This document shows positions 4,935 to 26,494 of a stretch of DNA of 41,872 nucleotides, piece by piece (the first letter of the stretch is position 1; each line of letters opens with the position of its first letter). This stretch comes from a virus. The notes under the pieces are model-generated. The model saw only the letters and a list, made by a program, of their open reading frames with translations. It made no database searches and was not told where the DNA came from. Location of the stretch: IMG/VR virus record IMGVR_UViG_3300017598_000874. One strand, 5' to 3'. Both the position numbers and the translations under genes were made by a program.

Positions 4935-5234
4935 ATGCGTATGAAAACAAATTTCAAAATCTGGTGCGGGGTATTGCGTAGGTTCCACGTATCGGTTCGA
5001 TTCTTCGAGGTTGCAGCAATCCTTGGGTTTCTCGATAAAGACACATGGAGAACGTTGTTTCCTCCATTCAAAGGTTGGGACATTGGATGCTACTACTGCG
5101 ACCTGCATGACCGCTCGGTTGAGCGTGGCGTGTGTGGCTATGGAGAAAGGCGTGGTTGGAAAAAGTGTGGTCGCGTTATAGGAGAAACGAACGATAAGAT
5201 GAGGCTGAAGAGCCGAAGGAGAAACGATGACTGA
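4935..5234 (+). CDS. hypothetical protein
   Basis: ATG 4935 lies 7 nt after AGGAG (4923-4927). The 3' end is read through family-A leader copy 1. Confidence 0.4.
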   Translation: MRMKTNFKIWCGVLRRFHVSVRFFEVAAILGFLDKDTWRTLFPPFKGWDIGCYYCDLHDRSVERGVCGYGERRGWKKCGRVIGETNDKMRLKSRRRNDD

Positions 5235-5279
5235 TACAAAAAAGCGTGACGGCCTTGATAGCCTCGATGAACTGGCTGG
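5199..5279 (+). repeat. family-A leader, copy 1
   Basis: ATGAGGCTGAAGAGCCGAAGGAGAAACGATGACTGATACAAAAAAGCGTGACGGCCTTGATAGCCTCGATGAACTGGCTGG. About 93% identical to 38425-38505. Confidence 0.9.
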
Positions 5280-8671: not shown

Positions 8672-8763
8672 CGACAAGATAACCAGCGGGAAAACCGCGA
8701 AGGGGTCAAGATGAAGGATAAAATTTCGGGCGGTTTTCACCGTATGGTTCATTTTCTGGTTAG
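8668..8763 (+). repeat. family-C leader, copy 1 (96 bp perfect)
   Basis: CTAACGACAAGATAACCAGCGGG...CATTTTCTGGTTAG, identical to 38158-38253. Confidence 0.95.
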
Positions 8764-8887
8764 CTTCCGCGCTGGAAGATTGAACGACATCAACATCTTT
8801 GAGGTGATATTGCTTTCGGCAATCGTTGGATCATTGCTTGGGGCTATCATTTACATGGGATTCCTTGAGTTAATCAAGGGAAGCTAA
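8711..8887 (+). CDS. small membrane protein (58 aa), family-C N-terminus (MKDKISGGFHRMVHFLVS)
   Basis: Read by hand. Begins inside the 96-bp perfect repeat. C-terminal TM segment VILLSAIVGSLLGAIIYMGFL. Confidence 0.5.
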   Translation: MKDKISGGFHRMVHFLVSFRAGRLNDINIFEVILLSAIVGSLLGAIIYMGFLELIKGS

Positions 8888-8923
8888 CGACAAAGTGAGT
8901 CTCCGAGGCTCGAAAGGACACAA

Positions 8924-9250
8924 ATGAAAAAAGCATCTGAAATTTTTGAAGACCAAAGAGGTTCGGCGTTTGCTGAATGCGTTGCGGAGCCGAAGGTAGA
9001 TTCTATGGCTGGTTCGATTCCAGTATTTACGGAAAAAAACTTAAGGGAGTGCTCTTTTTTGGCAGAGGGAACGGTGTTTGTTTCCGAGCATAACGACCCG
9101 CTCAAATACTGGGTAGAAATCGCGTTCTGTCGAAGCGTTGGGGTTTTCTTCCAAAAGAAAGACGCTGTCGAGTACGCAGAATTTATCAAATCGAACAGAG
9201 GTATAGATATAAAAAGTACATCTACGCAGATATTAAAGAGGAAAAGATGA
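8924..9250 (+). CDS. hypothetical protein
   Basis: SD aaagga. Contains GAGCCGAAGG and CTGGTTCG (9009-9016) repeat fragments. The 3' end is read through family-D copy B. Confidence 0.5.
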   Translation: MKKASEIFEDQRGSAFAECVAEPKVDSMAGSIPVFTEKNLRECSFLAEGTVFVSEHNDPLKYWVEIAFCRSVGVFFQKKDAVEYAEFIKSNRGIDIKSTSTQILKRKR

Positions 9251-9252
9251 CT
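9188..9252 (+). repeat. family-D leader, copy B (upstream of the SleB-like hydrolase)
   Basis: AAATCGAACAGAGGTATAGATATAAAAAGTACATCTACGCAGATATTAAAGAGGAAAAGATGACT. Confidence 0.9.
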
Positions 9253-9624
9253 ACTGGACTATTACTTGCATTAACTATCTGGCTAGAAGCGCGGGACGAA
9301 CCCTTTGAGGGAAAACTTGCCGTGGCTCAGGTTGTCATGGAGCGGGTGGCGGACAGCCGCTGGCCTGATACTGTCAGAGAAGTAATCCTGCAACCGAAGC
9401 AGTTCACCTGCTGGAACGGGCGGACACCATCGACAGCGCAGGTTCCGGCACAGCCTGATGAGGCATGGACGGCCTGCTGCGCCGCCGCAAGAGCGGTGCT
9501 TATGGACTCTGTGTTTCCGGACGGCTTCAATCATTATTATAATCCGAAGCGTTGCTCCCCGCTGTGGGCAAAAAGGGCCAAACGCACCATAAAAATCAAC
9601 AACCACTTATTTTTAGAATTATGA
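9247..9624 (+). CDS. SleB/CwlJ-family cell-wall hydrolase (endolysin candidate)
   Basis: TIWLEARDEPFEGKLAVAQVVMERV...QPKQFTCW...HYYNP...INNHLF matches the Hydrolase_2 (SleB) domain pattern EARGE..G..AVA.V..NR...QP.QF...YyNP...gnH.F. Confidence 0.9.
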   Translation: MTTGLLLALTIWLEARDEPFEGKLAVAQVVMERVADSRWPDTVREVILQPKQFTCWNGRTPSTAQVPAQPDEAWTACCAAARAVLMDSVFPDGFNHYYNPKRCSPLWAKRAKRTIKINNHLFLEL

Positions 9625-9672
9625 CCGCCCCTTTTTTAAACACACTTAATCACAGACGGAGATTGAGACAAA

Positions 9673-9792
9673 ATGAAAAACAAGACTACGAAAAGTCGGA
9701 GGGTTAGCTTGATTGATGTTATTGGGCTATCAATTTTGATTGCCGGAATAATCGCCGTTGTGGAGATTCTGCGGATTATTTACACAAGCTAA
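9673..9792 (+). CDS. small single-TM protein (39 aa), holin-like candidate
   Basis: Read by hand: MKNKTTKSRRVSLIDVIGLSILIAGIIAVVEILRIIYTS. Lies directly downstream of the hydrolase. Confidence 0.4.
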   Translation: MKNKTTKSRRVSLIDVIGLSILIAGIIAVVEILRIIYTS

Positions 9793-9822
9793 CGTTAATC
9801 ATCAGTTTCGAGGAGAAAGACT

Positions 9823-10065
9823 ATGACCGAAGAAAACAAACGTTGTACTCGTAAAATGAATGATCTGGTTAGATGTCCTTTTTGCAAGACGGAAGGTGAA
9901 TATCTGACAACGGTTATTGATGACAACAAAGCGTGGGTAAGTTGCTTTGAATGCGGTTGCAAGGGGCCATTTGCTATTGACTCAAGTTATGGGGATAGCG
10001 CGTCAAAGTTTGCACGAATACTATGGAACAACTCAGCATCTAACAGAAGTATAAATGGAAAATGA
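9823..10065 (+). CDS. Lar-family restriction-alleviation-like Zn-ribbon protein
   Basis: RCPFCKTEGEY...VSCFECGCKGPF...ARILWNN fits the Lar pattern CPFCG...C..Cg....A...WN. SD gaggaga. Confidence 0.6.
   Translation: MTEENKRCTRKMNDLVRCPFCKTEGEYLTTVIDDNKAWVSCFECGCKGPFAIDSSYGDSASKFARILWNNSASNRSINGK
10040..10064 (+). repeat. family-D, partial copy E
   Basis: CTAACAGAAGTATAAATGGAAAATG. The ATG of ORF 10062 lies inside it. Confidence 0.6.
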
Positions 10066-10301
10066 CGGCGCGATTAGCAGGGCGGATTGATTCCAGATTC
10101 TGTCCCGAGTGCCGAGAGTGGTATGAGGTGGAGGTTGGTCTGGCTACCAACGCTCAGGTTTACTGCACAACCGAATGCCGGATTGATGCTCGAAACCGGC
10201 GGCGGAGAAGGCGGGCCAGAGCAGCCAGCGCAATTCCGGTTGCCGAACAGGTTCGCCGGTGGGATTTACGTAAAGACCTAAAAAGAAAGGATGCGATATG
10301 A
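10062..10301 (+). CDS. Zn-ribbon + Arg-rich protein
   Basis: FCPEC...YCTTEC then RNRRRRRRAR. The CxxC..YC(S/T)xxC ribbon is shared with the ORF at 39474. Confidence 0.5.
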   Translation: MTARLAGRIDSRFCPECREWYEVEVGLATNAQVYCTTECRIDARNRRRRRRARAASAIPVAEQVRRWDLRKDLKRKDAI

Positions 10302-10438
10302 AAAGCGACAAAATGTCTTTTACCCAATATTTAAAGTTTTGGCTCAAGATCCACTTTGAGGACATTCGCCAGCCAGCAGATCAGGATCGTTATGCAGATG
10401 CACAGGGTTTTCATTCAATCTCCCGCGTGGCCGGTTAG
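10298..10438 (+). CDS. small ORF (46 aa), last on the plus arm
   Basis: ATGA coupling to the upstream ORF. Overlaps the 3' end of the convergent minus-strand ORF by 24 nt. Confidence 0.25.
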   Translation: MKSDKMSFTQYLKFWLKIHFEDIRQPADQDRYADAQGFHSISRVAG

Positions 10439-10714
10439 TTTGAGCACCATGAAAACAAGTCCGAGTATCGAGCCGAGCAGAGTTACCGCGCCGGGCCAGT
10501 TGAGCGCGTGGCGGGGTTTGGTGGCGGGGCAAGAGGCCATGCGAGCGCGGCATTCACGACTGCTGACAAATTCAGCATGGAACTGAATCCGGTTGGCGCG
10601 GATGAGGTAGCGGATGGCATCGCTCATGGTACCGGGGTCGCCGCGGTTTCCATTGCTGAGATCATTCTCCAGGCGCTCCCCCTCTAAAATCAGCTCCTTC
10701 TGTTCCGGTGTCAT
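10415..10714 (-). CDS. tail-anchored membrane protein (C-terminal TM), lysis or spanin-like candidate
   Basis: C-terminal TM WPGAVTLLGSILGLVFMVL. Last gene of the minus arm, next to a small lipoprotein gene. Confidence 0.45.
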   Translation of the reverse strand: MTPEQKELILEGERLENDLSNGNRGDPGTMSDAIRYLIRANRIQFHAEFVSSRECRARMASCPATKPRHALNWPGAVTLLGSILGLVFMVLKLTGHAGD

Positions 10715-10753
10715 AGTCTTCGTCCTTTTGCTCCCGGCCTTTGAACTTTATTG

Positions 10754-10963
10754 TTATTGCACCGGAATGGTGGTTTCGGGGGCAACGGCTCCGCCGCCTT
10801 CCATGTCTCTCACCGCTTCCGAATTGTTGTCGCTGCCGTCTGTATTCTGCGCCGCCGAGCGGCTGGTCAGGGCCTGACTGTTCGCGTTCACCGAATCAAT
10901 CCGTCCGGCCACGATGCACCCGCTCAGGAGTGCCGCTATTGTTAATAGTACTAGTATTTTCAT
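10754..10963 (-). CDS. small lipoprotein (o-spanin-like or exclusion candidate)
   Basis: MKILVLLTIAALLSGC lipobox. 69 aa. Flanked by a 15-bp direct repeat. Confidence 0.55.
   Translation of the reverse strand: MKILVLLTIAALLSGCIVAGRIDSVNANSQALTSRSAAQNTDGSDNNSEAVRDMEGGGAVAPETTIPVQ
10755..10769. repeat. 15-bp direct repeat, copy 1
   Basis: TATTGCACCGGAATG, identical to 10975-10989. Confidence 0.9.
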
Positions 10964-10974
10964 CGCTTATCCTC

Positions 10975-10989
10975 TATTGCACCGGAATG
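10975..10989. repeat. 15-bp direct repeat, copy 2
   Basis: TATTGCACCGGAATG. The two copies bracket the small lipoprotein gene. Confidence 0.9.
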
Positions 10990-10993
10990 TAGT

Positions 10994-12148
10994 TTATTCT
11001 CCGGTTAATTGTGTCTTAAACGCGGCAAAATCGGTAATTCCAGAAATCCCCACAGACTTTCCTTCTGTCATAGACTCCAAAATGTCGGCCATCAATGTTG
11101 GAGAGACAGTTAAATTTTTGTGTGTAGTTGAATCAGGCAATATCCACTTCGACCAACAAGATTTATAAACGGTTTCACCCTGACCGGGAATTTGATAGGG
11201 GTTGTTGCCGAAGAGCCGATTCGTTTCATTCACCAGCCCCACAGGGCAAAGGATTGCCACGCCGCCACTGTTTTTGGTTGGCCTGATGTGTGCAGCATTA
11301 TCAAAATCTAAATAGAATGTATCTGTATCATTTACCCACGTATCGAAACGCGGGATGTAATCTCTGGCTTCAACTTTACCGTTCTCGTAAATTTTGAGCA
11401 GACATATGCTCATGCCATCCTCAGCAGTCGTTCCCCAAAGAGGAATGTTGGGTTTAACCATGTGGACAATTGACTCATAATGGGCTGATACACGATTATA
11501 ATGGGAGTGATTATGTCCCATTACCGTCATTTTAATATTGGGGTGTTTTGCAATTACGCGGGAGCGAAACCCTTCCATATCCGCATCCACAGTTTGTCCG
11601 TCAACCAGAAAATAAGAGTGCGTTACAATTATACCAACCGCATTAGGGTTTGCAGTAAGAAGGGTGTTCGCCCACGTCTCAACCTCTGTTCTCGGATTCA
11701 TCTCCACACAAATAAACAGATAATCCCTGCCTTGGACAGCCAGCTTGTAAGCAACATTATTAATGTCCCCCTCTTTATACGCCCCTGCAAAATAAGATTT
11801 ATTTTCATAGCGGGAAGATGGGAATTCTTCATGCAAATAGGTGACACGACTGTTTGGCAGTTCAGCTTCCCCTCCAACCATATCGTGATTGCCCGTAGCA
11901 ATTAAAAATGGAACCTCCGCTTCCTCTATCGGCAAAAGAATATTCTTAGCCGCCGCGTTTACAATGCGGTGGAAAGATGCCGGACTGTTGTATTGCGCAT
12001 TTGACACGTCCCCCACGTGAACTACGAGTTGAATATTCTCAGCAACAATGTTATCCGCAACCCACTCTGCCATGAGCCGTTCGGTTTCCGCATCGGAGCC
12101 GTGACTGTAGTGCGTGTCGGGGATCAGAGCCAGTGTCCAATATTCCAT
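10994..12148 (-). CDS. calcineurin-like metallophosphoesterase
   Basis: Motifs in order: LIPDTHYSHG (DxH), HVGDVSN (GD), TGNHDM (GNHD), IVTHSY (H), VMGHNHSH (GHxH). Confidence 0.85.
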   Translation of the reverse strand: MEYWTLALIPDTHYSHGSDAETERLMAEWVADNIVAENIQLVVHVGDVSNAQYNSPASFHRIVNAAAKNILLPIEEAEVPFLIATGNHDMVGGEAELPNSRVTYLHEEFPSSRYENKSYFAGAYKEGDINNVAYKLAVQGRDYLFICVEMNPRTEVETWANTLLTANPNAVGIIVTHSYFLVDGQTVDADMEGFRSRVIAKHPNIKMTVMGHNHSHYNRVSAHYESIVHMVKPNIPLWGTTAEDGMSICLLKIYENGKVEARDYIPRFDTWVNDTDTFYLDFDNAAHIRPTKNSGGVAILCPVGLVNETNRLFGNNPYQIPGQGETVYKSCWSKWILPDSTTHKNLTVSPTLMADILESMTEGKSVGISGITDFAAFKTQLTGE

Positions 12149-13305
12149 TACTCAGCCCCGGCTAAAATTGCAGGCTCATCGATGTATCCATGATAAAACT
12201 GCCCAACTGATACATCATCTGGGTTAGCACCCATCCCCACTTGATCAGGAGTAAAAAAAGATGTTGAATCAGTGACGTTGGAAGCAACCAATTCCAGATT
12301 ATTCCACTCTGTCCCCACCCAGAGTTGCTGGTTGTCAACGGCAAGGAAGCGTCCCTCTACGCAATACCACGTTCCATCATTATATTGTTCGGCAGAAGTT
12401 GCGTGTCTCTCTGCCGTATTCCGCATTATCGTGCGAAGTTTTCCATTAGATGTTCCGATATAGAACTGTTTATCGTTTTCTGCCTTGTCGATCAGCGAAA
12501 TAATTGTTCCGATTGTCGTATTTGTAAATGCCGCCCGTGATCTTATCCGGAACGGATAGCCGGTAATATCATCAATATCACATTGTGCATAATCATCTGC
12601 TCCGTCAAAGGACCAGCACTCTTTACCCGCATATGTTGTAGCGGTTGGCTGATAGCCCATTCCCGTCTGTGTCATATCGTTTTCTTTAATGGAAAAATCA
12701 TGCCAAACGGCATTCGTTGTCTCGGAATCAATAACGGGATATTTTCCACTTAGCAACAATACAGAATCTATGCAGTCGGGATGAAAGGCCGCTAAATGAG
12801 CCAACGTCCCGTAAAGATTATCCGCCGCAATACGCGCCGTCTCTTCATCGGCCAGCGGGCCGGAATGAAACTCAACTGTAACGTCTGATAATACTCCATT
12901 AGAATACCAGCCATCATACGGGGGGAGGTAAGCCGCCGTATTATTAGTATAATCTTGGCCATCGACATCCAGAAGCCAATATGTATTCCATGCAAGGCCC
13001 GAGTAATATGGATGTTCCTCATACATATCTTGAAACGAATAAACTCCGTTACTTAGCGTTCCACTCACGACCACATACGAGTTCGTGAGCCATCCCCCAA
13101 CCGTCTTCGCCAGATCAAGCGTGTTGGTTGTATTGGCCGCATCCCCCGCAATCCGGGCCGTCGTCTCGGTGGCAAGGCCAGAGGCCGTTGCCGGAGTCGG
13201 AGATATGATGATCTCTTTCAGCACCGTTTCACCAACGACTTCGGTCGTAAACGTCCCCCCATAAACGCATCCCGCCAGCAATGTAAGTATCAGTATCTTC
13301 TTCAT
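12148..13305 (-). CDS. lipobox-bearing protein with C-terminal LamG/concanavalin-like domain (receptor-binding candidate)
   Basis: MKKILILTLLAGC lipobox. The C-terminus WSFDGADDYAQCD...WYCVEGRF...LWVGTEW...GMGAN...FYGYIDEPAI fits the LamG pattern. Confidence 0.7.
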   Translation of the reverse strand: MKKILILTLLAGCVYGGTFTTEVVGETVLKEIIISPTPATASGLATETTARIAGDAANTTNTLDLAKTVGGWLTNSYVVVSGTLSNGVYSFQDMYEEHPYYSGLAWNTYWLLDVDGQDYTNNTAAYLPPYDGWYSNGVLSDVTVEFHSGPLADEETARIAADNLYGTLAHLAAFHPDCIDSVLLLSGKYPVIDSETTNAVWHDFSIKENDMTQTGMGYQPTATTYAGKECWSFDGADDYAQCDIDDITGYPFRIRSRAAFTNTTIGTIISLIDKAENDKQFYIGTSNGKLRTIMRNTAERHATSAEQYNDGTWYCVEGRFLAVDNQQLWVGTEWNNLELVASNVTDSTSFFTPDQVGMGANPDDVSVGQFYHGYIDEPAILAGAE

Positions 13306-13318
13306 CTTGGTTCTCCTT

Positions 13319-14383
13319 TTAGTTGTCTACAAGTACAATATCAAATCCCGCAGATACTGAAGCTCCCGTGCCGCCATTCGCAGTCATAGTTACCCGCATC
13401 TCAATATCCGTCTTCTCCGAAAACACTTCAGGATCAATATAGTCGTGGACATAAGCCGATGTTCCTGTATCTGAAACTGCGCTTTTGTGTTTCAGCTGAA
13501 ACACCTGCCCAAACGGTCGGGCAAACAGCTGCACGATGTAGCTGGAGCCTCTACCCGCTCCGGCGGTTGCCGCATACCAACTTCGCAGGTATCCGGTCTT
13601 ACCGGCAGGGATAGTGTATATTGCCATTAATGTCTGGTTATTACCGTTATCCACCTGCGCTCTAACATCTTCTGAAGCAGTGACCACTCCGGAACTTGTC
13701 GGAGAGTTGGTGATGTAGCAGGAAACCTGTCCTACAAAATCAGAAGAGCCGACATTCTTTAAACGAAACACCCGAATCAGAGGGATTGGAATTTCCGCTC
13801 GCGTCTGCCCCGTCAGGGTAACAGTCTGCACAACCTGGGTATATCCGCTGTTCAATCCCTGAATTTCAATGTCTCCCGTATCACTGCCGGACGTGCTGAT
13901 AATACTGTCAATGTTTGCAGAATCAGAATAAGTATACGACATCTCATCAAGACCGCCGTCATTTGCACCGTCCCAGATAGATACACCTCCATCACCTGTG
14001 TCAAAATCGGGCGCATTGCCGAATTTATGAATATAAGAGACTCCGGTTACGTTGCCTTGTGCGATACTCAGCCCGCTGGAATTGTCTGAAATGGCAAGGT
14101 TTCCGTCCTGCGTAACGGCCACGTTATGGAAGGTATTGTCCTCATCCATGCCGGACAGAGTTGCTTTAACAAGCATCTCAAAATTGCCGCTGTAAACGTT
14201 AGATGAAATAGTAGCTTGGTTCCCAAGCGAATCTTGAATCACCGCGCCTACGACACCGGAAACGGTCTGGGTTGTGCCGGAGGCAGGGGTCGTGATAACG
14301 CTCTTCACAGGATTAACTACAAACACCTCGCTTGGTTCAGCAAGGCAAATAAACGGAATTAGAAGTATAACAAGACGGCGCAT
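13319..14383 (-). CDS. beta-rich protein with N-terminal signal-like leader (tail-fibre-region protein)
   Basis: ATG at 14383 (the ORF-track start 14386 is a GTG one codon upstream). MRRLVILLIPFICLAEP leader. Gly/Ser/Thr-rich. Confidence 0.65.
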   Translation of the reverse strand: MRRLVILLIPFICLAEPSEVFVVNPVKSVITTPASGTTQTVSGVVGAVIQDSLGNQATISSNVYSGNFEMLVKATLSGMDEDNTFHNVAVTQDGNLAISDNSSGLSIAQGNVTGVSYIHKFGNAPDFDTGDGGVSIWDGANDGGLDEMSYTYSDSANIDSIISTSGSDTGDIEIQGLNSGYTQVVQTVTLTGQTRAEIPIPLIRVFRLKNVGSSDFVGQVSCYITNSPTSSGVVTASEDVRAQVDNGNNQTLMAIYTIPAGKTGYLRSWYAATAGAGRGSSYIVQLFARPFGQVFQLKHKSAVSDTGTSAYVHDYIDPEVFSEKTDIEMRVTMTANGGTGASVSAGFDIVLVDN

Positions 14384-14391
14384 CACAGTTC

Positions 14392-14703
14392 CTATTTATA
14401 GGTGGCGGCAGCACGGTTTGTCCACGCTGTTGTCCATAGCGAATTGTCGCCAGCACCGGAGCCATAAGCATGTTTGATGCTAACAATATTTCCACTCGCA
14501 TCCTCAATCGTGCGAATAATTTTCCAAACAGCGGCATTTGTGCTTGGCGTACCTGCGGTATTTTCCGTGGTTCTTGTCATGCCCAAATAATTAGTTGTCC
14601 CGACTGTTTCACCAATATATGAATAAGCCTTGCCTATATTCTGCGCTATGACTATGAAAGCACAGATCAGGCTCAACATAATTCCAATTATTAACTTTTT
14701 CAT
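14392..14703 (-). CDS. small protein with signal-anchor
   Basis: Start moved to MKKLIIGIMLSLICAFIVIAQ (ATG 14703), which lies 6 nt after AGGAGA. Confidence 0.55.
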   Translation of the reverse strand: MKKLIIGIMLSLICAFIVIAQNIGKAYSYIGETVGTTNYLGMTRTTENTAGTPSTNAAVWKIIRTIEDASGNIVSIKHAYGSGAGDNSLWTTAWTNRAAATYK

Positions 14704-14766
14704 TCTGATCTCCTGTGAGGATTCCTCACCGTTATTTATACTTTGTCTCAATAAGGGTCAAGGATA

Positions 14767-17700
14767 TTACCCCTTTCTTTCCCACGGCGCTTTTTGTTTC
14801 TTCTTTTTCTTTCTGCCCAGCCCGCTAATATACTCGCGCCCTTCTTCAGTACTGTAAACTCCGTAAATCAGAGCTTTAATCGCATCATCATTTTCAATGC
14901 TAAAGAGCTTCTTCCCTGCCACATCCTGTACTTCTCCGCCCTCTGCAACAGCAGAAAGAACATCAATTATGCGGGCATAGCTTGCCCCTCCACCCATTCC
15001 AAGAGTTGCCAATCCGTAAGATGCCGCCCATTTATAAACACGCTTCGGATTTTTATGTTCAGCCAAATCATAAACACCTGCGAACAAATTATCAAAATTG
15101 CGTAACAGGTCGGGCCGGGTTTCTTTATAGTGAGCAAACCGTGTTACAGGCCCGTATTTTCTCAAGAATTTTCCAATCTCTTCATCTGCCTTAAAATGTT
15201 CTGCCAGAAAAGCGTTTATTTCAGCATCAATAATATCTCCCGCATACGGAACAAAAGTTCCTGCCGTATAATAAGAGCGGCCCGTCAACCACTTCATAAA
15301 TGCAGAAATAACCGTGGCCGACATTGCCAGCCATAAAGCCCGCAACATTCTTTCTTTTACACTTAACGGCACCCCCAGCCCCATAATGGTTTTTGCATGA
15401 TTCATTGCTGTAACAGCAAAAGTCTGATGGCTTGACAACATTTTTAAAACATCCGAGTTCTGAATAAATCCGCGAGTTTCCCGACGATAATTGGATTGAG
15501 TTTCCGCACCAATAATATCAGCATATAAAGCAGCTCTTTCACCCTTCATTCCCATTTGCTGTGCTTTATAATTCATGCCGATTACAGAAGCCCGCGTTAA
15601 ATACCGCTCTACAAAAGTTGCCCCCTTATTCAGCATTTCATTAAATACTTCTATAAATGAAAGACGGGAGCCAGAAACATCTTTAACCTCCGTTGCGCCA
15701 TATAACGGCCCGTAAATATCAGAGCGTTTCATGGTTTCAAACGGGCCGTAATCACCCATATTTTCAGTGGTCGGCTGTGCTGCTAAAAGAAGCCCCCTGA
15801 AGAAGTTAATCGGCCCTGAACTGCTTATTGAAAGCCCTCCTGAAGTCCATTGTGTACCAAGCATGAACCCTGCATTTCCAACCAGGTGCGCCCGAACTCG
15901 CACACCCTGCCATTCCCGCATTAGCTTTTGCGCTTGTGAACCAACCTCAATGTTCATTCCAGAATCAAGTTTGCTTATATCACCAACAAGAGCCTCTTCA
16001 ATATATCGCTTCCAATATCCGTTATATTTCGGAAACCCTCTTGTTCCATCTTCCCGATAAACTTGACGTAATGCCTGCCGATACAAATTGATTTTGCGAA
16101 TCGCAGGAGAAATATAGGCATGATTTATCAGCTTATGAAGGTGAGCATACATCTGATTAAAATAGTTTTCCTGCTTTGCTCTGGTCTTAAAAGCCTCCGC
16201 CCAATACTGCTGATCACTACGCATAAGCTCATAGCGTGATTTTACATCTATATTGTGTCGCTCAATCAAATCTTCTATGAAAAGAAGAGATTCTTTAATG
16301 AAAACTACATCCTGCTGATCTTCTGCGGCAAATTCTTCAATCGGATTTTTCCGCAACATATCCAGCCCGTATTTATCAGATACAGCATAAAGCTGTTCAT
16401 TTGCAGATTTGCTATACGGGTTCATGCCGTGTTTACGGTACAAATCAGCCAAAATTCCTTCTTCGGTAAACAGTGCCGTGTTTTTATTGTTTACCGCTTC
16501 TACGGTAGGAATCGCCACGCCCTCTGTAGCCCCGCCAAACCCGTTTTCCACATTATCAAACTTCAACGCCTGCAATCCAACGTGTTCCGTTGAACTGTTG
16601 GTATCTTTTTGATTAACACGGGCATATAAATCCGTCATTGCAAAAACTTGATTTTCATCCAATTCCTGCAAATTGACCGTAACACCTGATGCATCAGCAT
16701 CCCGCAATACTTTTTCAGCCGCCTCGATTTTCTGCTTCGCGTCTTTGAGTTTTGTTTGATCTTCTTCTGACAAAAGCCCGGCAACTCCCTCATACCGCTT
16801 AATCAACGTCAGTCCTTCAGCCAATTCTCCAACATTGATTTTATCAGCCAGCTCTACAATTTTGGCTTTATGTTCAAGACGTGCCAGCCCTTGGAAGTAT
16901 TGCTTTACAACCGCCAAAGAATCCGTGTTATACACTTGCGGAGAAACATCCTTTTTACGGGAAACCATACTTCCAAATTTCAGGTCTTCTTTTTGAAGAA
17001 TCCAATCTGCATCTATTTCTTCTTCACTCATATATCGGTCAGCTTTACGAAGCGGAAAAAAGTAATCACCCCTGGGATTAAACCGGTCTCCGGTAATTGC
17101 TGCCGCATGAACAATTCTGTCCCGCAAAAGGGGCCGTATCTGATGCCAACGATCATAAAAAGATTTTGCCCGAGAAGACAGATCGACTCCTTCAGTCATT
17201 TCCAAAAACTGAATCTGTTCAGCGGTCAGATCTTCTGTTTTAAGTTGATTAAGCTGATCTCGCAAAGTTTTTTCAAATATGCTTTGAACATCATCGTCTG
17301 TCAGTAAAGAAAGAATAGCCCCAAACTCTGCATTAAAAGCCTGCTCGCCGCGCAAATTCAACTCAGTATTGAGTATTTCTAAATCTTCATCACGGATTCT
17401 ATCAAACGGAAGGATTCTTTCTGCGGGATAAGAAATATCCTCAGCGGGTATTGTCGCAATTTCCTGTGTAGGTTTGGCGGGATCGAAATTAACCACCTGC
17501 TCATTATAGCGGGCAAGTGCTGCCGCATCACCACGAATGGCTTTCTTGAAATTTTCCTGCTGTTCACTTGGTTTATACATCAGGTCAGCATCTTCGTCGG
17601 AGAGAGTTTCTCCTAGATGCTTGGCTTCTTGCGGGGTCAGAACCTCGGTGAACGCGTGACGGGTAGCAGGAGCCTCTTGGGAGGTGGGTTTGGCAACTAT

Positions 17701-20700
17701 CGGCATAATATTAGCAGACTCATCGGTGTATTCCTGTATTTGAACCCACTTGTCGCCAACCCTAACCTCGATGTTCTTTGGGGAAACAGCTTGCGTGGAA
17801 ATGTAATCACCCCCATCGTTGCTTACATCAGACACCATTGTGTCCGTCTGTTTTGTTCTTAACAGTCGCCCGTTTTTTCTGGTCGCATATGACTCGCCAT
17901 AAACCTCCGTGTCTGCAAAATAGTTTTTATCTCCCGTTAAACCTTCTTCTCTTATTCTTCGGAACGCCCCCTCGCTAGTCCCGTGATAAACCCACGCCAC
18001 ATCCTTCGCCCCCTCTTTAGCAGGAGCCTCTTGGGAGGTGGGTTTGGCTTCGCGAATAATGTCTTTATCTAAAACAATATACGAATCGCTTTCTGTCTTT
18101 CCCTCGTACTCATTTCTGTAAATAATGGAGTCATAACCCATTTCAAGAAACGTGTCTCTAACGACCTTTGCCGAATCTCCGCTTGATACACGACTTTCAA
18201 AAAATGTTTTTTCAGCTTCGGTCATCCCAGTTTCGTCTGAATATTTTTTCCCGCCATACTCCAGCTTTCCACGAATCGCCAAAAGATACTGGTCTGCAAC
18301 ATTCCAATCGGAAATGTCTGGCAATCTGAGCGTTTTCTTCGGGGTTATGGTGCGGGAATAAACCCTTCTGCCAAGCCCTTTTTGAACGCCAATTCTGTGA
18401 GTTGCGACCTCTTCTGTTCCAAAGTGTACGCCAATATCGCCCTTTTCAACATCGAACGATGTTATTGACTCGTCTCTTGAGCCGTGGAATACATCAAGCC
18501 CCTCTTTAGCAGGAGCTTCTTGGGGGGTGGGTTTGATTTCTGGCGAGACGTAAGTTTTCGACCCATCGTCATTAACTATCTCTGTCCACCCTTCACTCGT
18601 GCGTTGCTTGATAATGTTTTCAAGAACCTTTTTAAAAACGGGAAGCCCCTTGGCCTCTGGAGACACGGTAAAGGAAATTACATTGTCTAGCAGGTTCTTT
18701 CTGGTCGGAAACGGTGCTATAAACTCAGCAGACCCTTGCTCTATGTGGTGATCCCACCCAGGAAGGTTTTTGTTTATCCGCAACATCATGTCATTAGGAG
18801 CGCGCATCTCAATCAAAACGCCAGTGTTTTCTTTCTGTCCAAGAGCCAAATCCTTGTTGTTTGAGAAGAACAGTTCTCCTGCAATTTCACCGCTTGCCCT
18901 GTCGTCAATAAACTCTAAAGATCGCTCGATGTTTGTCTGACGAAATAGCTTATCCGTAAAGGTGCTGGCTGGTTCAAGGAACTCGCTTTTCGATTTTATG
19001 ACCCCGTTTTCTCCAATCTTTGGCATCTCCCCCTCTTTAGCAGGAGCCTCTTGGGGGGTGGGTTTGTACTCACCGCTTCGGCTAAACGGGAAGGGAACCA
19101 TGTCTCCGTTTTCTGTCTCTAGCATTGTGGGGAAGTCTTTTACATAGTCAAAGCTTTTCGGGTTATCCTGCTCGCCCCATCTTATCGAAGGGCCATCTCC
19201 CGTATCAGACTTGACCACAACTGGTATGGTTTTTACGCCAAGCTCTTTTAGAGCCATTGCTCTGTGCCTGCCCTCATGCGACATAATGCTTACCGACTCT
19301 CCCATGTTTTCAAAACGCAAATACGGCAAACTTTCAAAACGTGTTTCAGATGAAAGAAGGTCTGATACCGTTTTTTCTTTCGTCTGGTCTTTTACGGGCA
19401 GATGTTCTGCCATGTTTAGAAAATCATCAATTGGCATCCGAACAAGAGTCTCTCTTGATTTTGGATTTTGATTTGATGCTCGCTCGATTTCTGTTTGGTC
19501 AAAGTATTTGTCGCCATCTCCCCCCTCTTTAGCAGGAGCCTCTTGGGTCTCAACCATAGACTCAATTTCATCAGCCAAATGCTCCTCAACAACCTCTTGG
19601 GCTGTCTCCTGCGGGCTCTCCGACTCAACAATGCGCTCTGCATACTCTGGAGACTTCTCACCAAATAACGGTTCTATCTGCTGTGTAATCCGCTTCTTTG
19701 CCACCTCTGCATCCACATCCTGAGCAAATGCTGTGATAGAGGAGCCAAGCGCACCAAGTAATGCCCCGGCCCTCGCATTCGCCCAAAATTCAACAGGTTC
19801 AATCTCTTTATTTAAAAGCTTCTGAAGCAAAACATACTCAAACCCCTCCTGTCCACCCTCGGTAACAGACCCAAGAGCAGCTTGGGTCGCTGTTTTAGCA
19901 AGCACCCGTAGCGCAGGAGATGATAGCTTGCCGCCAATGCCACGAAGCGGTCTGAATACGCCACCAATCACCAAGTCTGAAAGAACCGCCGTCGGAGCCG
20001 CTACAGCCGTATAAATACCGGCAGCGTCATGAGCATCACCGTCAGAAAGACCGTCATCTTTGGCTTGGGAGAACGCCTCGTTGTAGTACATCCCGATGTT
20101 GATTGGCACAGAAGCAGATAAGCCGCCGATAAATGAACCGGAAGCCCTTGTTCCGCCAGCCAAAACCGATAACGATCCGCCAAACAAACCAGCTCCCGCG
20201 ACTACAGGAATAATAGATAGCAACTGACCGCCGCCGGATGTCCACACCGAGTTCAACGCATCTTCGTGAGCCACCTCATCAAACATCCCCTTTTCGGACA
20301 TAACGTTGTACAGGTCATTTCCATATTCAGTCTGATAATCACCCATATTCATAAAGAAGTCATAGGAAGGACTGTTTTCTCCATTCTTGGAGTAGTTTCT
20401 CACCAACCCAGCAATCATCTTGTTTCCACCGGAGGCGGTATGCCAAACGTGCTTTGCGGTATGCCCTGATAAAGCCCTCATATAATCCCCGAAAGTCGCT
20501 TTATCATTAATCTCAAGGCTCATTGGGTGGGCATCGGTCTGTGCTATTTTATAGGTATTGCGAAGGGATCGAACCGCCGAAGTATAGGAAGCATTTTCTC
20601 CAAAATCAGCACGAACCCGATTGGCTACGGCTTCATCACTCAATTCAGTGCCGTTCTTGTAAGAGTAATAGTTTTTAAGAAGAACGTGAGAATGAGTTTC

Positions 20701-20877
20701 ATCATCAGCTTCAACAATCTGTTTTGGAATAGAAAGAATGCTTGCTTCTGCTGTTTGCGGATTAAATGCAGAGGCATTCACCCTGCCGGAGTTAATTAAT
20801 GTAGAGCGCAATTCTTCTTGCGTTGTCCCGTCAGGGATATTTTGTACAAGCGTGCCATTTGGAAGCCTAATATCCAT
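14767..20877 (-). CDS. giant internal virion/ejection protein with polyvalent architecture (2036 aa)
   Basis: Occupies the position of T7 gp16 after two smaller internal proteins. Gly-rich hydrophobic segments in the N-terminal region. Five KPT(P/S)QEAPAKEG linkers delimit cassettes. The C-terminal region of about 965 aa has hydrophobic segments and a KKKKKQK tail. Confidence 0.8.
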   Translation of the reverse strand: MDIRLPNGTLVQNIPDGTTQEELRSTLINSGRVNASAFNPQTAEASILSIPKQIVEADDETHSHVLLKNYYSYKNGTELSDEAVANRVRADFGENASYTSAVRSLRNTYKIAQTDAHPMSLEINDKATFGDYMRALSGHTAKHVWHTASGGNKMIAGLVRNYSKNGENSPSYDFFMNMGDYQTEYGNDLYNVMSEKGMFDEVAHEDALNSVWTSGGGQLLSIIPVVAGAGLFGGSLSVLAGGTRASGSFIGGLSASVPINIGMYYNEAFSQAKDDGLSDGDAHDAAGIYTAVAAPTAVLSDLVIGGVFRPLRGIGGKLSSPALRVLAKTATQAALGSVTEGGQEGFEYVLLQKLLNKEIEPVEFWANARAGALLGALGSSITAFAQDVDAEVAKKRITQQIEPLFGEKSPEYAERIVESESPQETAQEVVEEHLADEIESMVETQEAPAKEGGDGDKYFDQTEIERASNQNPKSRETLVRMPIDDFLNMAEHLPVKDQTKEKTVSDLLSSETRFESLPYLRFENMGESVSIMSHEGRHRAMALKELGVKTIPVVVKSDTGDGPSIRWGEQDNPKSFDYVKDFPTMLETENGDMVPFPFSRSGEYKPTPQEAPAKEGEMPKIGENGVIKSKSEFLEPASTFTDKLFRQTNIERSLEFIDDRASGEIAGELFFSNNKDLALGQKENTGVLIEMRAPNDMMLRINKNLPGWDHHIEQGSAEFIAPFPTRKNLLDNVISFTVSPEAKGLPVFKKVLENIIKQRTSEGWTEIVNDDGSKTYVSPEIKPTPQEAPAKEGLDVFHGSRDESITSFDVEKGDIGVHFGTEEVATHRIGVQKGLGRRVYSRTITPKKTLRLPDISDWNVADQYLLAIRGKLEYGGKKYSDETGMTEAEKTFFESRVSSGDSAKVVRDTFLEMGYDSIIYRNEYEGKTESDSYIVLDKDIIREAKPTSQEAPAKEGAKDVAWVYHGTSEGAFRRIREEGLTGDKNYFADTEVYGESYATRKNGRLLRTKQTDTMVSDVSNDGGDYISTQAVSPKNIEVRVGDKWVQIQEYTDESANIMPIVAKPTSQEAPATRHAFTEVLTPQEAKHLGETLSDEDADLMYKPSEQQENFKKAIRGDAAALARYNEQVVNFDPAKPTQEIATIPAEDISYPAERILPFDRIRDEDLEILNTELNLRGEQAFNAEFGAILSLLTDDDVQSIFEKTLRDQLNQLKTEDLTAEQIQFLEMTEGVDLSSRAKSFYDRWHQIRPLLRDRIVHAAAITGDRFNPRGDYFFPLRKADRYMSEEEIDADWILQKEDLKFGSMVSRKKDVSPQVYNTDSLAVVKQYFQGLARLEHKAKIVELADKINVGELAEGLTLIKRYEGVAGLLSEEDQTKLKDAKQKIEAAEKVLRDADASGVTVNLQELDENQVFAMTDLYARVNQKDTNSSTEHVGLQALKFDNVENGFGGATEGVAIPTVEAVNNKNTALFTEEGILADLYRKHGMNPYSKSANEQLYAVSDKYGLDMLRKNPIEEFAAEDQQDVVFIKESLLFIEDLIERHNIDVKSRYELMRSDQQYWAEAFKTRAKQENYFNQMYAHLHKLINHAYISPAIRKINLYRQALRQVYREDGTRGFPKYNGYWKRYIEEALVGDISKLDSGMNIEVGSQAQKLMREWQGVRVRAHLVGNAGFMLGTQWTSGGLSISSSGPINFFRGLLLAAQPTTENMGDYGPFETMKRSDIYGPLYGATEVKDVSGSRLSFIEVFNEMLNKGATFVERYLTRASVIGMNYKAQQMGMKGERAALYADIIGAETQSNYRRETRGFIQNSDVLKMLSSHQTFAVTAMNHAKTIMGLGVPLSVKERMLRALWLAMSATVISAFMKWLTGRSYYTAGTFVPYAGDIIDAEINAFLAEHFKADEEIGKFLRKYGPVTRFAHYKETRPDLLRNFDNLFAGVYDLAEHKNPKRVYKWAASYGLATLGMGGGASYARIIDVLSAVAEGGEVQDVAGKKLFSIENDDAIKALIYGVYSTEEGREYISGLGRKKKKKQKAPWERKG
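17665..17694 (-). repeat. linker repeat 5 (KPTSQEAPA)
   Basis: agcaggagcctcttgggaggtgggtttggc. Confidence 0.9.
17695..18010 (-). other. cassette 4: second ART/Tpt1-like module
   Basis: VAWVYHGTSEGAFRRIREEGL...NYFADTEVYGESYA. YHGT + I..eGL is typical of H-type ART/KptA folds. Confidence 0.45.
18011..18047 (-). repeat. linker repeat 4 (KPTSQEAPAKEG)
   Basis: ccctctttagcaggagcctcttgggaggtgggtttggc. Confidence 0.9.
18048..18499 (-). other. cassette 3: ADP-ribosyltransferase-like (ART-PolyVal-like) module
   Basis: LDVFHGS...GVHFGTEEVA...DSIIYRNEYEG. This layout is recalled from polyvalent-protein ART domains and is unverified. Confidence 0.45.
18500..18535 (-). repeat. linker repeat 3 (KPTPQEAPAKEG)
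   Basis: ccctctttagcaggagcttcttggggggtgggtttg. Confidence 0.9.
18536..19030 (-). other. cassette 2: uncharacterised, possibly R-type ART-like
   Basis: LFRQT...GELFFSNNKDLALGQ parallels the YHGT...YFADTE layout of cassettes 3 and 4, with R replacing H. Speculative. Confidence 0.25.
19031..19066 (-). repeat. linker repeat 2 (KPTPQEAPAKEG)
   Basis: ccctctttagcaggagcctcttggggggtgggtttg. Confidence 0.9.
19067..19522 (-). other. cassette 1 of the giant protein: ParB/Srx-like (ParBc nuclease-like) domain
   Basis: MSHEGRHRAMALKELGVKTIPVVV (nt 19213-19278) resembles the ParB/sulfiredoxin core DGxHRxxAaxxlGxxxiPv. Confidence 0.55.
19523..19547 (-). repeat. linker repeat 1 (QEAPAKEG)
   Basis: Plus-strand cctctttagcaggagcctcttggg, shared with the four other copies. 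Confidence 0.9.
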
Positions 20878-22437
20878 TTACTTCGCTTTTGGTAATGAAT
20901 TAAAATCAATTACATTTTCTTGCCGTGGAGCTGTTCCGGGTGCCGTTATCTGCCCAAAAATGCGGAGTTGTCTTCCTGTCATTAACGAGGCATTGCGAAG
21001 CTCTGTGCTTTTAGTATCCGCAAGATTTCCAAGTTCCCCGATACGTGCCTCCAGTGCGGACTGAACTTCTTCGTCAGTACCCGTTTTTCCTTTTTCCACC
21101 ATGCCCAGCATATCATCAATAAATGAAGTCCATATGCCAACTTCTCCAGAAGCCTTTACTGCACTCGTATAAGCATTATAAAGACGATCATATTCTTTTG
21201 CGGTAAACTTCCGTTTCTCTTTGTCCAGAGGAAGACTGGTTTTGCGCTCTGAAACAATATACTCAATAATCGCCGCTTTTTGCTGTTGATTTAAAGCATT
21301 TGACGCAGAAACATCTTCAATAGTCTGATCAACATCTTCGGGATTTCCCCCAAACCAACGAAGTGATCCTGTCATATTTTTAATACGTTTCGCTAATCCC
21401 TGATTAGTCCTTGCAAGAACTTTGATTCCCTCATTACGAGCATCTCGAAGTTCAGACTTGTTTTCAAAGCTCCCCGTCTCGGTACGCTCATAAATTTCAG
21501 CAATAGGCCCGGTATTTGCAATGTTTTCAAGCCACGCCGCCGCATCAGGGATGTTGGCTTCAATTTGCCCGCCAATCTGGTCAACAACTCCGGTAACATC
21601 TTCGCCCTTCCCGATAGCATCAGCAATTTTTCCGATAAGCCCCCACGACTCTGTTATCATTTTGTTTTTAAGGGCGGCAGAAGATTTTTTAACAGCCGCA
21701 TACTGTGCAGGAGTCAAATGAGCCTTGATTTTATCAAGACTTTCTTCAAAATTAACTACTTGCGGAACATTCTGAAGCTCAGATAAAGCTCCTATTGCCG
21801 CACTGTAAGTTCCTTCTGTACGATACCGCTCAAGCTCTTCAGGAGAAATCAGCCCCTCCATCTGCATCAATACTTCATCAGACTGTTCAGATAAAGCGAG
21901 ATATTGATCTTCATCTCCGGCAAGGTAAGCATCTATTGCTTCTTTGCGAATTACGTCAGCCTCACTCTTAATTCCCACCACCGCCTTCTGCATGGCAAAA
22001 TGATTCCCTTCTTTATGCCACGCGGCCTGTTCATAGGCCGATCGCTCTCGATGATAAAGCTGGAAGTCATCAAGAGCCCTCTTAGAGCCGCGCCAGCTTT
22101 CAATAAGTCCGCCCTCCCAGTCCTTCATGCTCTCTTCCATGAAAGCGGCTTTATGCTCCGGTGTTTTATCACTAAATCCAAAATTTCTTTCGTCCGGCGG
22201 CTTTGCCATTTCAGCATCAAATCCAGAAGAAAGAGCATTTGTTTTTTCAAGACGGGCCACTTTAGCTTCAGACAAAAACCCCTGATCCTTAAACTCCCCG
22301 ATCTTCGCCACCATCTGCCCAACATTCTGCACCTGCCCGCCTAACTCACCAAGCGCAGAGGCTACAGGGTCAGACCCCTGTAATTTTACCGTTCCGTCAA
22401 GCCGGGCCGGTTGCTGTTCATAAGTTGGTATTGCCAT
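20878..22437 (-). CDS. internal virion protein (gp15-position)
   Basis: Position between the small internal protein and the giant protein. Helical and acidic. Its stop abuts the next start. Confidence 0.55.
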   Translation of the reverse strand: MAIPTYEQQPARLDGTVKLQGSDPVASALGELGGQVQNVGQMVAKIGEFKDQGFLSEAKVARLEKTNALSSGFDAEMAKPPDERNFGFSDKTPEHKAAFMEESMKDWEGGLIESWRGSKRALDDFQLYHRERSAYEQAAWHKEGNHFAMQKAVVGIKSEADVIRKEAIDAYLAGDEDQYLALSEQSDEVLMQMEGLISPEELERYRTEGTYSAAIGALSELQNVPQVVNFEESLDKIKAHLTPAQYAAVKKSSAALKNKMITESWGLIGKIADAIGKGEDVTGVVDQIGGQIEANIPDAAAWLENIANTGPIAEIYERTETGSFENKSELRDARNEGIKVLARTNQGLAKRIKNMTGSLRWFGGNPEDVDQTIEDVSASNALNQQQKAAIIEYIVSERKTSLPLDKEKRKFTAKEYDRLYNAYTSAVKASGEVGIWTSFIDDMLGMVEKGKTGTDEEVQSALEARIGELGNLADTKSTELRNASLMTGRQLRIFGQITAPGTAPRQENVIDFNSLPKAK

Positions 22438-22446
22438 AATAGTCCC

Positions 22447-25864: not shown

Positions 25865-25865
25865 T

Positions 25866-26483: not shown

Positions 26484-26494
26484 AGCCCCGCCCT

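Follow-up and report, generated by a model that had tools for sequence, protein, structure and literature searches.

The published geometry of the attC bottom strand in integrons includes G16, T23/24, a 6-bp spacing, spacers of 5–6 nt, a purine-rich composition, a length of 57–141 nt, and a crossover that falls between A and C in AAC (Nivina 2016, PMC5027507). According to an account of engineered sites, attC can be embedded in virtually any sequence since its recognition is structural (Nivina 2020, PMC7439510). The sites of one integron resemble each other more than they do those of other integrons, a pattern that has lacked an explanation (Cury 2016). Furthermore, integrase-less attC clusters occur in virulent phages, and such sites were recombined by IntI1 (Qi 2023, PMC9892861). 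The present analysis concerns the viral record IMGVR_UViG_3300017598_000874, a stretch of 41,872 nt (the window), and starts from a leader in which near-identical start regions give three unrelated small proteins the same N-terminus. With a probability of roughly 0.7, this leader, termed family A, is a subtype of integron attC-type recombination site, and the small genes that carry such sites are mobile-cassette-like. At least 15 attC-type elements of 57–109 nt, all on the + strand, are spread over three clusters of tiny accessory genes (38.1–39.1 kb, 1.5–2.4 kb, and 5.2–9.9 kb), with half-sites in addition.

The phage elements resemble the attC sites of sedentary chromosomal integrons, such as the Vibrio cholerae repeats (VCRs) and those of Pontiella F21, in having an R box with AAC/GTT, spacers, an L box with bulge 16 and T23, and a variable loop. 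As in chromosomal integrons, they form same-strand arrays with single small open reading frames (ORFs) between them, the sites being alike in one replicon and the ORFs unrelated. Unlike in chromosomal integrons, however, the phage sites are found in a genome without an integrase and their ORFs lie on the bottom strand; the loop mostly carries the Shine-Dalgarno sequence (SD) and the start codon, the L''/R'' arm is translated, and the TAA of the previous gene falls in R'. The phage clusters of Qi 2023 (PMC9892861), in the sections concerned, have a minimum of two predicted sites and show cassettes in the usual orientation, whereas here at least 15 sites in three clusters are all inverted and double as translation-initiation and N-terminal coding sequence. 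Another difference from the clusters as presented there is that several other phage contigs have elements of this type too. The sites in the account of Nivina 2020 (PMC7439510) are engineered, whereas the phage arrangement is natural, repeated, and spans the start codon. With 15 sites at E < 0.1 and no IntI homologue in the window, the locus falls under the definition of an attC cluster devoid of an integron integrase (CALIN; Cury 2016). In full-text searches of the literature, no description was found of attC sites carrying an SD, start codon, and N-terminal codons, or of systematic bottom-strand coding, this site density, or integrons in Kiritimatiellota.

Two arrangements in T4-type phages are also comparable. 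In T4, unrelated small internal proteins encoded in a variable locus share an N-terminal capsid-targeting leader of about 10 residues, which is cut by the prohead protease. There the peptide is the functional unit, whereas in the present leader the nucleotides are the conserved unit. In addition, promoter-early stem-loop (PeSL) elements, reportedly described by Arbiol in 2010, are said to flank variable small early ORFs in plastic regions of T4-type phages and to have been proposed to serve gene shuffling. PeSLs combine an early promoter with homologous recombination, are not attC-like, and encode no N-termini; no promoter signal was found in the elements studied here.

The family-A copies and their genes are as follows (scores refer to two covariance models, R1 and R2, introduced below):

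5187–5281, + strand: family-A copy 1, complete element (R1 19.0 bits, E 0.0027; R2 12.5 bits, E 0.066)
5227–5445, + strand: gene of 72 aa, an ORF with SD whose first ~18 codons lie within the element
7364–7403, + strand: 5' half-site (repeat D2) with R' TCCAAC|gacaac, L' CATGAGGCT, the hairpin, and an SD
7531–7605, + strand: family-A copy 2, 3' part only, found as a repeat match and matched by neither covariance model
7553–7819, + strand: 88-aa double zinc-ribbon gene with the family-A N-terminus; Pfam matches just below curated cut-offs
38412–38507, + strand: family-A copy 3, complete element (R1 26.4 bits, E 1.6e-5; R2 22.4 bits, E 1.3e-5)
38453–38710, + strand: 85-aa winged-helix gene (AlphaFold2 model, mean predicted local distance difference test score, pLDDT, 72)

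The shared leader pointed out in the sequence-only reading is real. It was recovered as a repeat family (D1; 5199–5291, 7525–7617, and 38425–38517), as a 30-mer AAAAAGCGTGACGGCCTTGATAGCCTCGAT with three exact occurrences (0 in 100 shuffles), and as a 73-nt core. The three ORFs, which all start with MT(D/E)TKKRDGLDSLD, are otherwise unrelated, as had been claimed, and their start codons are supported by SDs 7–8 nt upstream and by the lack of in-frame alternatives. The distance of about 8.5 kb between two of the copies across the genome join is also correct (38453 to 5227, 8,525 nt). An identity of more than 90% had been proposed; over 93 nt, the third copy is 91% identical to the first and the second 76%, and pairwise identities in the 73-nt core (5209–5281, 7535–7607, and 38435–38507) are 89–92% by BLASTN. 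The conserved stretch was said to run from a small hairpin to codons 14–16, which does not hold for the copy at 7535 because it lacks the 5' half, including half of GGCT-gaag-AGCC. The upstream 25-mer GAGGCTGAAGAGCCGAAGGAGAAAC occurs three times at no more than one mismatch (positions 5201, 7378, and 38427), and its copy at 7378 precedes another gene, 7404–7556, that does not have the shared N-terminus. This copy belongs to the half-site at 7364–7403, which is directly followed by the ATG of that gene and is read through by gene 7213–7407 (C-terminus SNDNHEAEEPKEKQ). The half-site and the partial copy at 7531–7605 look like one site split by the 50-aa ORF 7404–7556.

The leader families share their ends, which begin with (C/T)(C/T)AACGA(C/A)AA and end with CTGGTTRG. 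The latter motif occurs 11 times on the + strand, always in the small-gene clusters, and once on the - strand, with about 1.3 occurrences expected per strand; it lies 42–51 nt past a start codon or 14–40 nt ahead of one. On the coding strand, each element consists of R' (NNYTAAC), a 6-nt spacer, a 9-nt L' arm, the variable loop, a conserved T, a stem of 6 bp, one bulged nucleotide, and 3 bp (the L'' arm), followed by a 5-nt spacer (NNCTG) and R'' (GTTRGNN). In coding subtypes, the SD, the ATG, and some 10 codons are found in the loop together with a small hairpin. The TAA stop of the previous gene is the TAA of R' in 7 of 18 sites and ends exactly at the published A|C crossover.

In family A, codons 11–18 (GAT AGC CTC GAT GAA CTG GTT RG) encode D-S-L-D-E-L-V-G/S. 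The T of the first GAT corresponds to T23, AGCCTC to the 6-bp stem, the next G to the bulge, ATG to L'', AACTG to the spacer, and GTTRG to R'', and the SD, the start codon, and the GGCT-gaag-AGCC hairpin are placed in the loop. The small hairpin of the sequence-only reading is thus present but is only part of the variable loop; the main pairing in predicted folds is long-range and joins a segment upstream of the SD to codons ~10–15, as in CATGAGGCT with AGCCTC[G]ATG. Copy 1 comprises R' ACGAAC|g, L' ATGAGGCT, the loop with hairpin, SD, and ATG 5227, and a 3' arm with L'' AGCCTC[G]ATG, spacer aactg, and a degenerate R'' GCTGGCC. Copy 2 has the second half of the hairpin, the SD, ATG 7553, L'' AGCCTC[G]ATT, cgctg, and GTTCGCC. 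In copy 3 (predicted RNA fold z = -3.3), R' ACTAAC|gacaac contains the TAA stop of gene 38201–38416 at the crossover point and is followed by L' CATGAGGCT, the SD, ATG 38453, L'' AGCCTC[G]ATG, aactg, and R'' ATTAGCC.

Across 37 aligned sites from the window and other loci, 94% of L-box positions are paired, and seven of the nine pairs vary on both sides. The covariation score of the L box is 0.445, compared with 0.134 for shuffled sites (0 of 500 reach 0.445) and 0.04–0.12 for slid partners. Examples of compensated L boxes are CATGAGGCT / AGCCTC[G]ATG, CATGACTTT / AAAGTC[G]ATG, AATCAGACT / AGTCTG[A]ATT, GGTGAGGCT / AGCCTC[C]ACC, and GTTGAGTCT / AGATTC[C]AAC. Because G:T pairs in the L box exceed A:C pairs by 19 to 2, the coding strand is the folding strand. 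The AAC of R' is kept in 34–36 of the 37 sites and the GTT of R'' in 36, although R'' is degenerate (ATT and GCT) in two family-A copies; the boxes are typically (C/T)(C/T)TAAC and GTT(A/G)G. From the 3' end inward, a 7-nt R'' is followed by a 5-nt spacer, 3 bp, the bulge (position 16), the 6-bp stem, and the T (position 23). The bulge, on the arm opposite AAC, is A in 15 sites, G in 12, C in 8, and T in 2 (a purine in 27 of 37), and T23 is found in 35 of 37. Most sites have a 5' spacer of g plus 5 nt, with NNCTG as the 3' spacer, matching the unpaired attC spacers of 5–6 nt. Loops measure 12–95 nt and whole sites 55–138 nt (56–110 nt in the window), with a purine fraction of 0.556. These elements agree with the published attC bottom-strand geometry, and the phage coding strand corresponds to the attC bottom strand.

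The link to integrons comes from a bacterial genome. A search pattern derived from the phage elements (ATGAGSCT N30-60 AGSCTCRAT N3-4 CTGGTTRG) matched seven IMG/VR loci and two of 185,579 species genomes, both Pontiella (Kiritimatiellota). In Pontiella sulfatireligans F21 (L069), the match is one of several like elements that separate small + strand ORFs, and this array adjoins a divergently transcribed 357-aa integron integrase (TIGR02249 448.6 bits, cut-off 265; Pfam Phage_integrase and Phage_int_SAM_4). As an array beside a divergent integrase is the standard layout of a complete integron, the Pontiella elements are attC sites; their cassette ORFs are in the normal orientation, on the strand opposite to the attC bottom strand. 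Between intI and the first cassette (1496–1689 of this locus), the presumed attI region has four direct repeats, TTTCC(A/T)(C/T)ATATGACC, which may be integrase-binding repeats.

Two covariance models were built, R1 from six Pontiella sites and R2 from four Pontiella sites unmatched by the phage-derived pattern. With a threshold of E < 0.1, each finds 15 matches in the window, every one of them on the + strand and within a small-gene cluster. When run on the fetched loci (402 kb), R1 matched at E <= 0.1 only the Pontiella training loci and related phage loci (L008–L010, L062, L063, L066, and L067). No Rfam family matched the window at the gathering score, and at E <= 1 none matched the sites in L068 and L069. 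By sequence comparison, the phage elements are homologous to genuine integron attC sites. No integron integrase was found in the window (tblastn for IntI at E <= 10; Pfam) or in any phage locus.

Apart from family A, the window contains the following elements:

880–978, + strand: probable D8-like element, diverged, spanning the start of gene 921 (repeat D14; ends CTGGTTGG)
1523–1609, + strand: 87-nt element with the start of gene 1571 (R1 35.1 bits, R2 32.2 bits)
2011–2095, + strand: 85-nt non-coding element, 10 nt upstream of ATG 2105 (R1 42.2 bits, R2 41.1 bits)
2334–2419, + strand: 86-nt non-coding element, the top match (R1 63.3 bits, E 1e-16; R2 61.3 bits, E 3e-20)
5463–5570, + strand: diverged family-A-type element before and inside gene 5510 (MSEEVKKNAGGSDSLNELVG), matched by R1
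5726–5821, + strand: element at the start of gene 5761 (R1 29.5 bits, R2 28.2 bits)
6062–6161, + strand: weaker element at gene 6097 (R1 14.0 bits, E 0.089; R2 13.7 bits, E 0.023)
7167–7266, + strand: D9-type element at the start of gene 7213 (MSDKNAAGQDVPSIDWLA), W-L frame (R1 and R2 matches)
7822–7931, + strand: element at gene 7872 (R1 17.2 bits, E 0.03)
8144–8243, + strand: second D9-type element, start of gene 8190 (R1 and R2 matches; RNA fold z = -4.1)
8367–8422, + strand: short non-coding element with a 14-nt loop, 31 nt upstream of ATG 8453 (R1 21.8 bits, R2 22.8 bits)
8667–8765, + strand: D8-type element at the start of gene 8711 (MKDKISGGFHRMVHFLVS; repeat D8; R1 and R2 matches)
8884–8923, + strand: 5' half-site before gene 8924 (AGCTAAC|gacaaag, hairpin GAGTCTCCGAGGCTC, SD)
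9788–9874, + strand: 87-nt element with the start of gene 9823 (MTEENKRCTRKMNDLVR; R1 44.4 bits, E 5.6e-11; R2 43.8 bits)
38157–38255, + strand: D8-type twin before the unrelated gene 38201 (repeat D8; R1 and R2 matches)
39012–39074, + strand: short element with a 20-nt loop, 25 nt upstream of ATG 39099 (R1 17.7 bits, R2 13.7 bits)

The elements at 5463, 5726, and 6062 bear out the claim that diverged copies of the leader start ORFs 5510, 5761, and, probably, 6097. The first (L box CATGAGGCT/AGCCTC[A]ATG) scores 19.2 bits with R1 when filters are off and 32.2 bits (E 8.8e-7) with default filters; the L box of the second is fully compensated (AATCAGACT/AGTCTG[A]ATT); and a 1-nt insertion in the third shifts its 3' arm into the third reading frame. 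The D8 pair (8668–8766 and 38158–38256) is 99% identical over 99 nt, with identity running exactly from CTAAC to GTTAG between unrelated flanks, and the D9 pair (7170–7269 and 8147–8246) is 90% identical. A previous TAA lies at the crossover in the elements at 2334 (gene 2105–2338; ATG 2424 follows 5 nt downstream), 7167 (gene 6530–7171), and 8884 (gene 8711–8887). In the strongly matched element at 9788, the L box is CATCAGTTT/AAAATG[A]ATG. The 3' arm of the element at 7822 (AGCCTCGATTggcttGTTGTCT) codes for part of the lipoprotein signal peptide of gene 7872 (...AIASIGLLSGC); this element is 89.7% identical over 116 nt (BLASTN) to L010:2813–2928, and the gene bodies behind the two copies are unrelated (tblastn, first 22 aa only). 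The element at 880 has a long-range stem and is 84.6% identical to L009:19510–19587, and neither model matches it. Sites are roughly 200–340 bp apart, such that the cassettes would be very small.

Other phages carry the same element type. Relatives were fetched through homologues of the HIRAN/PD-(D/E)XK nuclease of this phage, and in L008, L009, and L010 (nuclease 48–63% identical) CTGGTTRG is found on the gene strand only, near gene starts; a family-A-like leader occurs among them once, as MINTNDKKTGAPRSLDELVG. Elements of this type precede unrelated genes in L009, L010, L061–L063, and L066. The motif is missing from the majority of the other fetched loci, more distant relatives included, and metagenome loci reached through the nuclease (mostly at <=43% identity) together with L054–L060, all without it, served as negative controls. 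Very similar non-coding attC-type elements of ~87 nt (AATGAGCCTT.GTGCCCTGTGGCT.AGA..CAAAACAGGGCGTTTA...) were observed at L066 3125–3212 and 3832–3914, L009 19728–19814, L062 11722–11805, and L063 1476–1561; they precede different genes in viral contigs of 20–97 kb, with two in L066. Cassette bodies shared between phages or with Pontiella were limited, in tblastn searches, to the winged helix-turn-helix orthologue described below, one 30% match, and one leader-only match. Exact leader patterns had no match in IMG/VR.

The only orthologue found for a family-A gene, P0002, is 75% identical to the 85-aa protein and has MTNDKKTGAPCSLDGLVMLL. Its identity is 47% in residues 1–17 versus 81% in residues 18–85, and on its contig (L003) the upstream arm is swapped for a uniform ribosome-binding site (RBS), AAAGGAGCTAGGGGATG; the leader thus evolves apart from the gene body. 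The sequence-only reading was to be judged against relatives without the shared leader; in P0002, the element no longer has its 5' half and residues 1–11 are different, but S-L-D-x-L is retained. At L003 1–1640, each small gene is preceded by the same 17-nt AAAGGAGCTAGGGGATG with the TAG stop of the upstream gene inside, which is a different, genome-wide uniform translation-coupling junction. For the 72-aa protein, a 45% identical homologue (P0055) keeps ...LDSLVDLLKEAY (LDSLVDLL) and not residues 1–11. The 88-aa protein has no homologue besides itself among 5.8 billion proteins, and its zinc-ribbon matches (Zn_ribbon_4 29.3 bits, cut-off 30.3; DUF7559 26.9, cut-off 27), all sub-cut-off, are the only Pfam domains found in the leader proteins.

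That MT(D/E)TKKRDGLDSLD is a protein-level N-terminal tag for localisation, packaging, or degradation, comparable to the T4 capsid-targeting sequence, is very improbable. Such a tag would account for 14–16 residues common to three unrelated proteins, for D-S-L-[DN]-x-L-V in diverged copies, where some changes are synonymous (AGC/AGT and CTC/CTG in 5761), and for LDSL..L in homologues from other phages. However, the same element is read in three frames: CTG|GTT gives L-V in family A, D8, 921, and 9823; C|TGG|TT gives W-L or L-L in 7213 (W-L-A), 8190, 1571, and the signal peptide of 7872 (I-A-S-I-G-L-L-S); and 6097 uses the third frame. Four further elements (2011–2095, 2334–2419, 8367–8422, and 39012–39074) are not translated at all, lying wholly upstream of the SD and ATG. 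The conservation is therefore neither always in frame nor confined to the peptide, and it reaches about 40 nt upstream of the ATG. The motif nucleotides pair and covary with the upstream segment, and residues 1–11 are not kept in orthologues. In the AlphaFold2 model of the 85-aa protein, residues 1–12 are non-helical, with pLDDT < 50 for most of 1–10, and residues 13–22 (LDELISLLKE, partly from L''/spacer/R'') form helix 1 of the winged helix, such that part of the site-encoded peptide is built into the fold rather than forming a separate tag. The functional-tag explanation offered by the sequence-only reading was therefore abandoned. Its second explanation, that the nucleotide sequence itself is selected or homogenised, was right in kind, but the integron attC-type nature had not been seen. 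Since pairing with the 5' arm and the features that an integrase recognises both constrain the segment, the identical N-termini are best viewed as a by-product of the shared site.

Two other explanations accept a nucleotide element and dispense with current integrase activity. Elements derived from attC may now act as mRNA structures, for display or hiding of the SD and ATG, termination-coupled translation, or RNase III-type processing, with no integrase acting on phage DNA. The folding strand is indeed the mRNA-sense strand, predicted long-range stems close around the SD and ATG (two elements have z = -3.3 and -4.1), the upstream stop codon sits in the stem base at 7 of 18 sites, and the loop hairpin covaries (GGCT-GAAG-AGCC in the window and GAGTCT-GAAG-AGACTC in L062). 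This explanation is nevertheless unlikely: the SD/ATG is in the loop of about 11 elements but 5–31 nt downstream of the element in four, the predicted folding of several elements does not surpass that of shuffles (z = +1.1, +0.4, and +1.5), and the best-kept features (AAC, T23, bulge 16, and the 6-bp spacing) are those recognised by integrase, with no known RNA role. An mRNA-level role and the attC reading may also be compatible, as they are not mutually exclusive. Alternatively, the elements may be passive relics or linkers that entered the phage lineage once and now spread and homogenise by ordinary homologous recombination or gene conversion, with site-specific recombination playing no part; they would then resemble lambdoid boundary sequences or T4-type PeSLs. 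Near-identity confined to the element (99% in D8 and 89–92% in family A), half-sites and a split site (7364–7403/7531–7605) resembling unequal homologous exchange in the loop, the replacement of 5' arms by a uniform RBS in L003, and a possible contribution of the phage's own HIRAN/PD-(D/E)XK nuclease would all fit. Relics are expected to decay, however, whereas structure and integrase-recognition features are kept by compensatory change across diverged subtypes, coding subtypes included, and both model searches of the window gave matches at E < 0.1 on one strand only. We regard passive spread as about as doubtful as a purely mRNA-level role.

The integron attC-type reading is preferred over these explanations, and each small gene and the site at its 5' end are together built like a gene cassette, with the ORF inverted relative to normal bacterial cassettes. 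In the proposed mechanism, a host integron integrase would act on the phage sites to excise, insert, or shuffle cassettes; the host of this integrase-less phage would likely be a Pontiella-like member of Kiritimatiellota; and site replacement or homogenisation within the genome would place the same site before unrelated genes. That the phage's DNA is recombined at all, which host it has, and what the phage might gain are inferred. The identical sites on unrelated phage genes represent the same unexplained pattern as in chromosomal integrons (Cury 2016). It is possible, though on balance doubtful, that this phage group keeps accessory early genes as inverted cassettes, with an attC site at the head of each tiny gene providing its RBS, start codon, and first ~16 codons and a TAA at the crossover closing it, and that a host integrase shuffles these cassettes between co-infecting phages and possibly the host integron.

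Several observations weigh against the preferred reading. As no phage integrase was found, site activity would depend on the host, and the only tie to a Pontiella-like host would be the similarity of the sites. The phage ORFs lie on the bottom strand with the site at the 5' end, which is the opposite of typical integron cassettes. A crossover at A|C leaves a site on its own gene body, such that simple cassette movement fails to explain identical sites; to have identical sites on unrelated bodies takes site replacement, gene conversion, or the genesis of cassettes. Only about half of the sites fit the extended RYYYAAC/GTTRRRY consensus (GTTRRRY in about 11 of 22 CTGGTTRG sites, compared with 25% expected given GTTRG). 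The alignment of 37 sites (A3) was fitted to the model, the model E-values are rough, and the copies may have acquired their covariation while still in bacterial integrons, ahead of the move into phage. Furthermore, homologues of two of the three leader proteins keep the LDSL..L segment, which AlphaFold2 places in helix 1, and the site-encoded peptide is therefore not functionless. Finally, the sole other contig of this phage (Ga0216252_10003730, L001/L002; 12.3 kb) is 100% identical to window 38177..8744 and is thus uninformative on cassette presence or absence at A|C. The assembly evidently broke at the 99-nt D8 repeat, because this contig ends inside its two copies.

Identical N-termini on unrelated phage proteins are here explained by a defined DNA structure rather than a peptide signal, a warning for annotation that N-terminal motifs common to phage ORFans can be nucleotide elements. 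The findings also extend those of Qi 2023 to a much denser and differently organised case, in which the coding strand carries the site, the translation start lies inside it, and its own sequence is translated. Active sites would give the accessory genes of phages a site-specific path to mosaicism, would allow host prediction from attC type (here toward Pontiella-like Kiritimatiellota), and would offer a small system for how attC sites join new genes. If cassettes are indeed exchanged between co-infecting phages, those in a host integron would be antisense and silent, the arrangement would mirror, from the phage side, chromosomal integrons in which anti-phage defence cassettes are kept, and the near-identical sites on unrelated bodies would be a compact natural case for attC attachment to new genes.

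Other interpretations of the motifs were tried and dropped. CTGGTTRG resembles a Chi-like site (GCTGGTGG) but goes with gene starts and belongs to a paired element; for a miniature inverted-repeat transposable element with CTAAC/GTTAG inverted ends, attC geometry is the better explanation; and a hammerhead-like core in CTGAAGAGCCGAA has no stem II and no Rfam match. T7- or N4-type phage promoters were dropped as no phage RNA polymerase was found, and a scan for sigma-70 promoters and terminators showed no enrichment (12 promoter-like sites, 12.1 expected; none of those listed in a family-A copy).

The window ends are redundant over 121 nt (1–121 = 41752–41872), which gives a genome of 41,751 bp. 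The phage is podovirus-like, with ~17 kb of small genes on the + strand and the following larger genes:

41623–41751 and 1–924: nuclease of 350 aa; its database homologues have precomputed HIRAN or PD-(D/E)XK Pfam domains
22917–25526, - strand: tail tubular B, structural gene
27111–28085, - strand: major head protein, structural gene
29390–31063, - strand: portal, structural gene
32134–33573, - strand: TerL, structural gene

The nuclease, with many homologues in marine phage contigs, was the marker by which relatives were fetched. IMG/VR relatives by TerL are only 22–30% identical, and megablast of the leader region and the structural module against 50,697 phage records gave no match.

Three further repeats were observed in the window. 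At 35567–37448, a separate conserved start region AAACCGAAATGGAGACAGRAAATGAAA (repeat D4) stands ahead of each of five or more small genes in a row; this region does not resemble attC, and neither covariance model matches it. A 64-nt repeat (2613–2676, 9187–9250, and 39278–39341; 83–94% identical), with partial copies at 5962, 10040, and 39979, covers a gene 3' end and the ATGA start of the next gene, opens with (C/T)(C/T)AACAG, and includes TGATATAAAT. R1 gives only a very weak match to it (39255–39280, E 2.3); a promoter and a half-site of some other kind are both conceivable. Finally, a 41-nt motif occurs five times, spaced 354–531 nt apart (17652–19558), within a gene for a 2036-aa protein (14767–20877, - strand) that has no PHROG match; the five copies suggest repeated domains in a giant virion protein of the ejection type.

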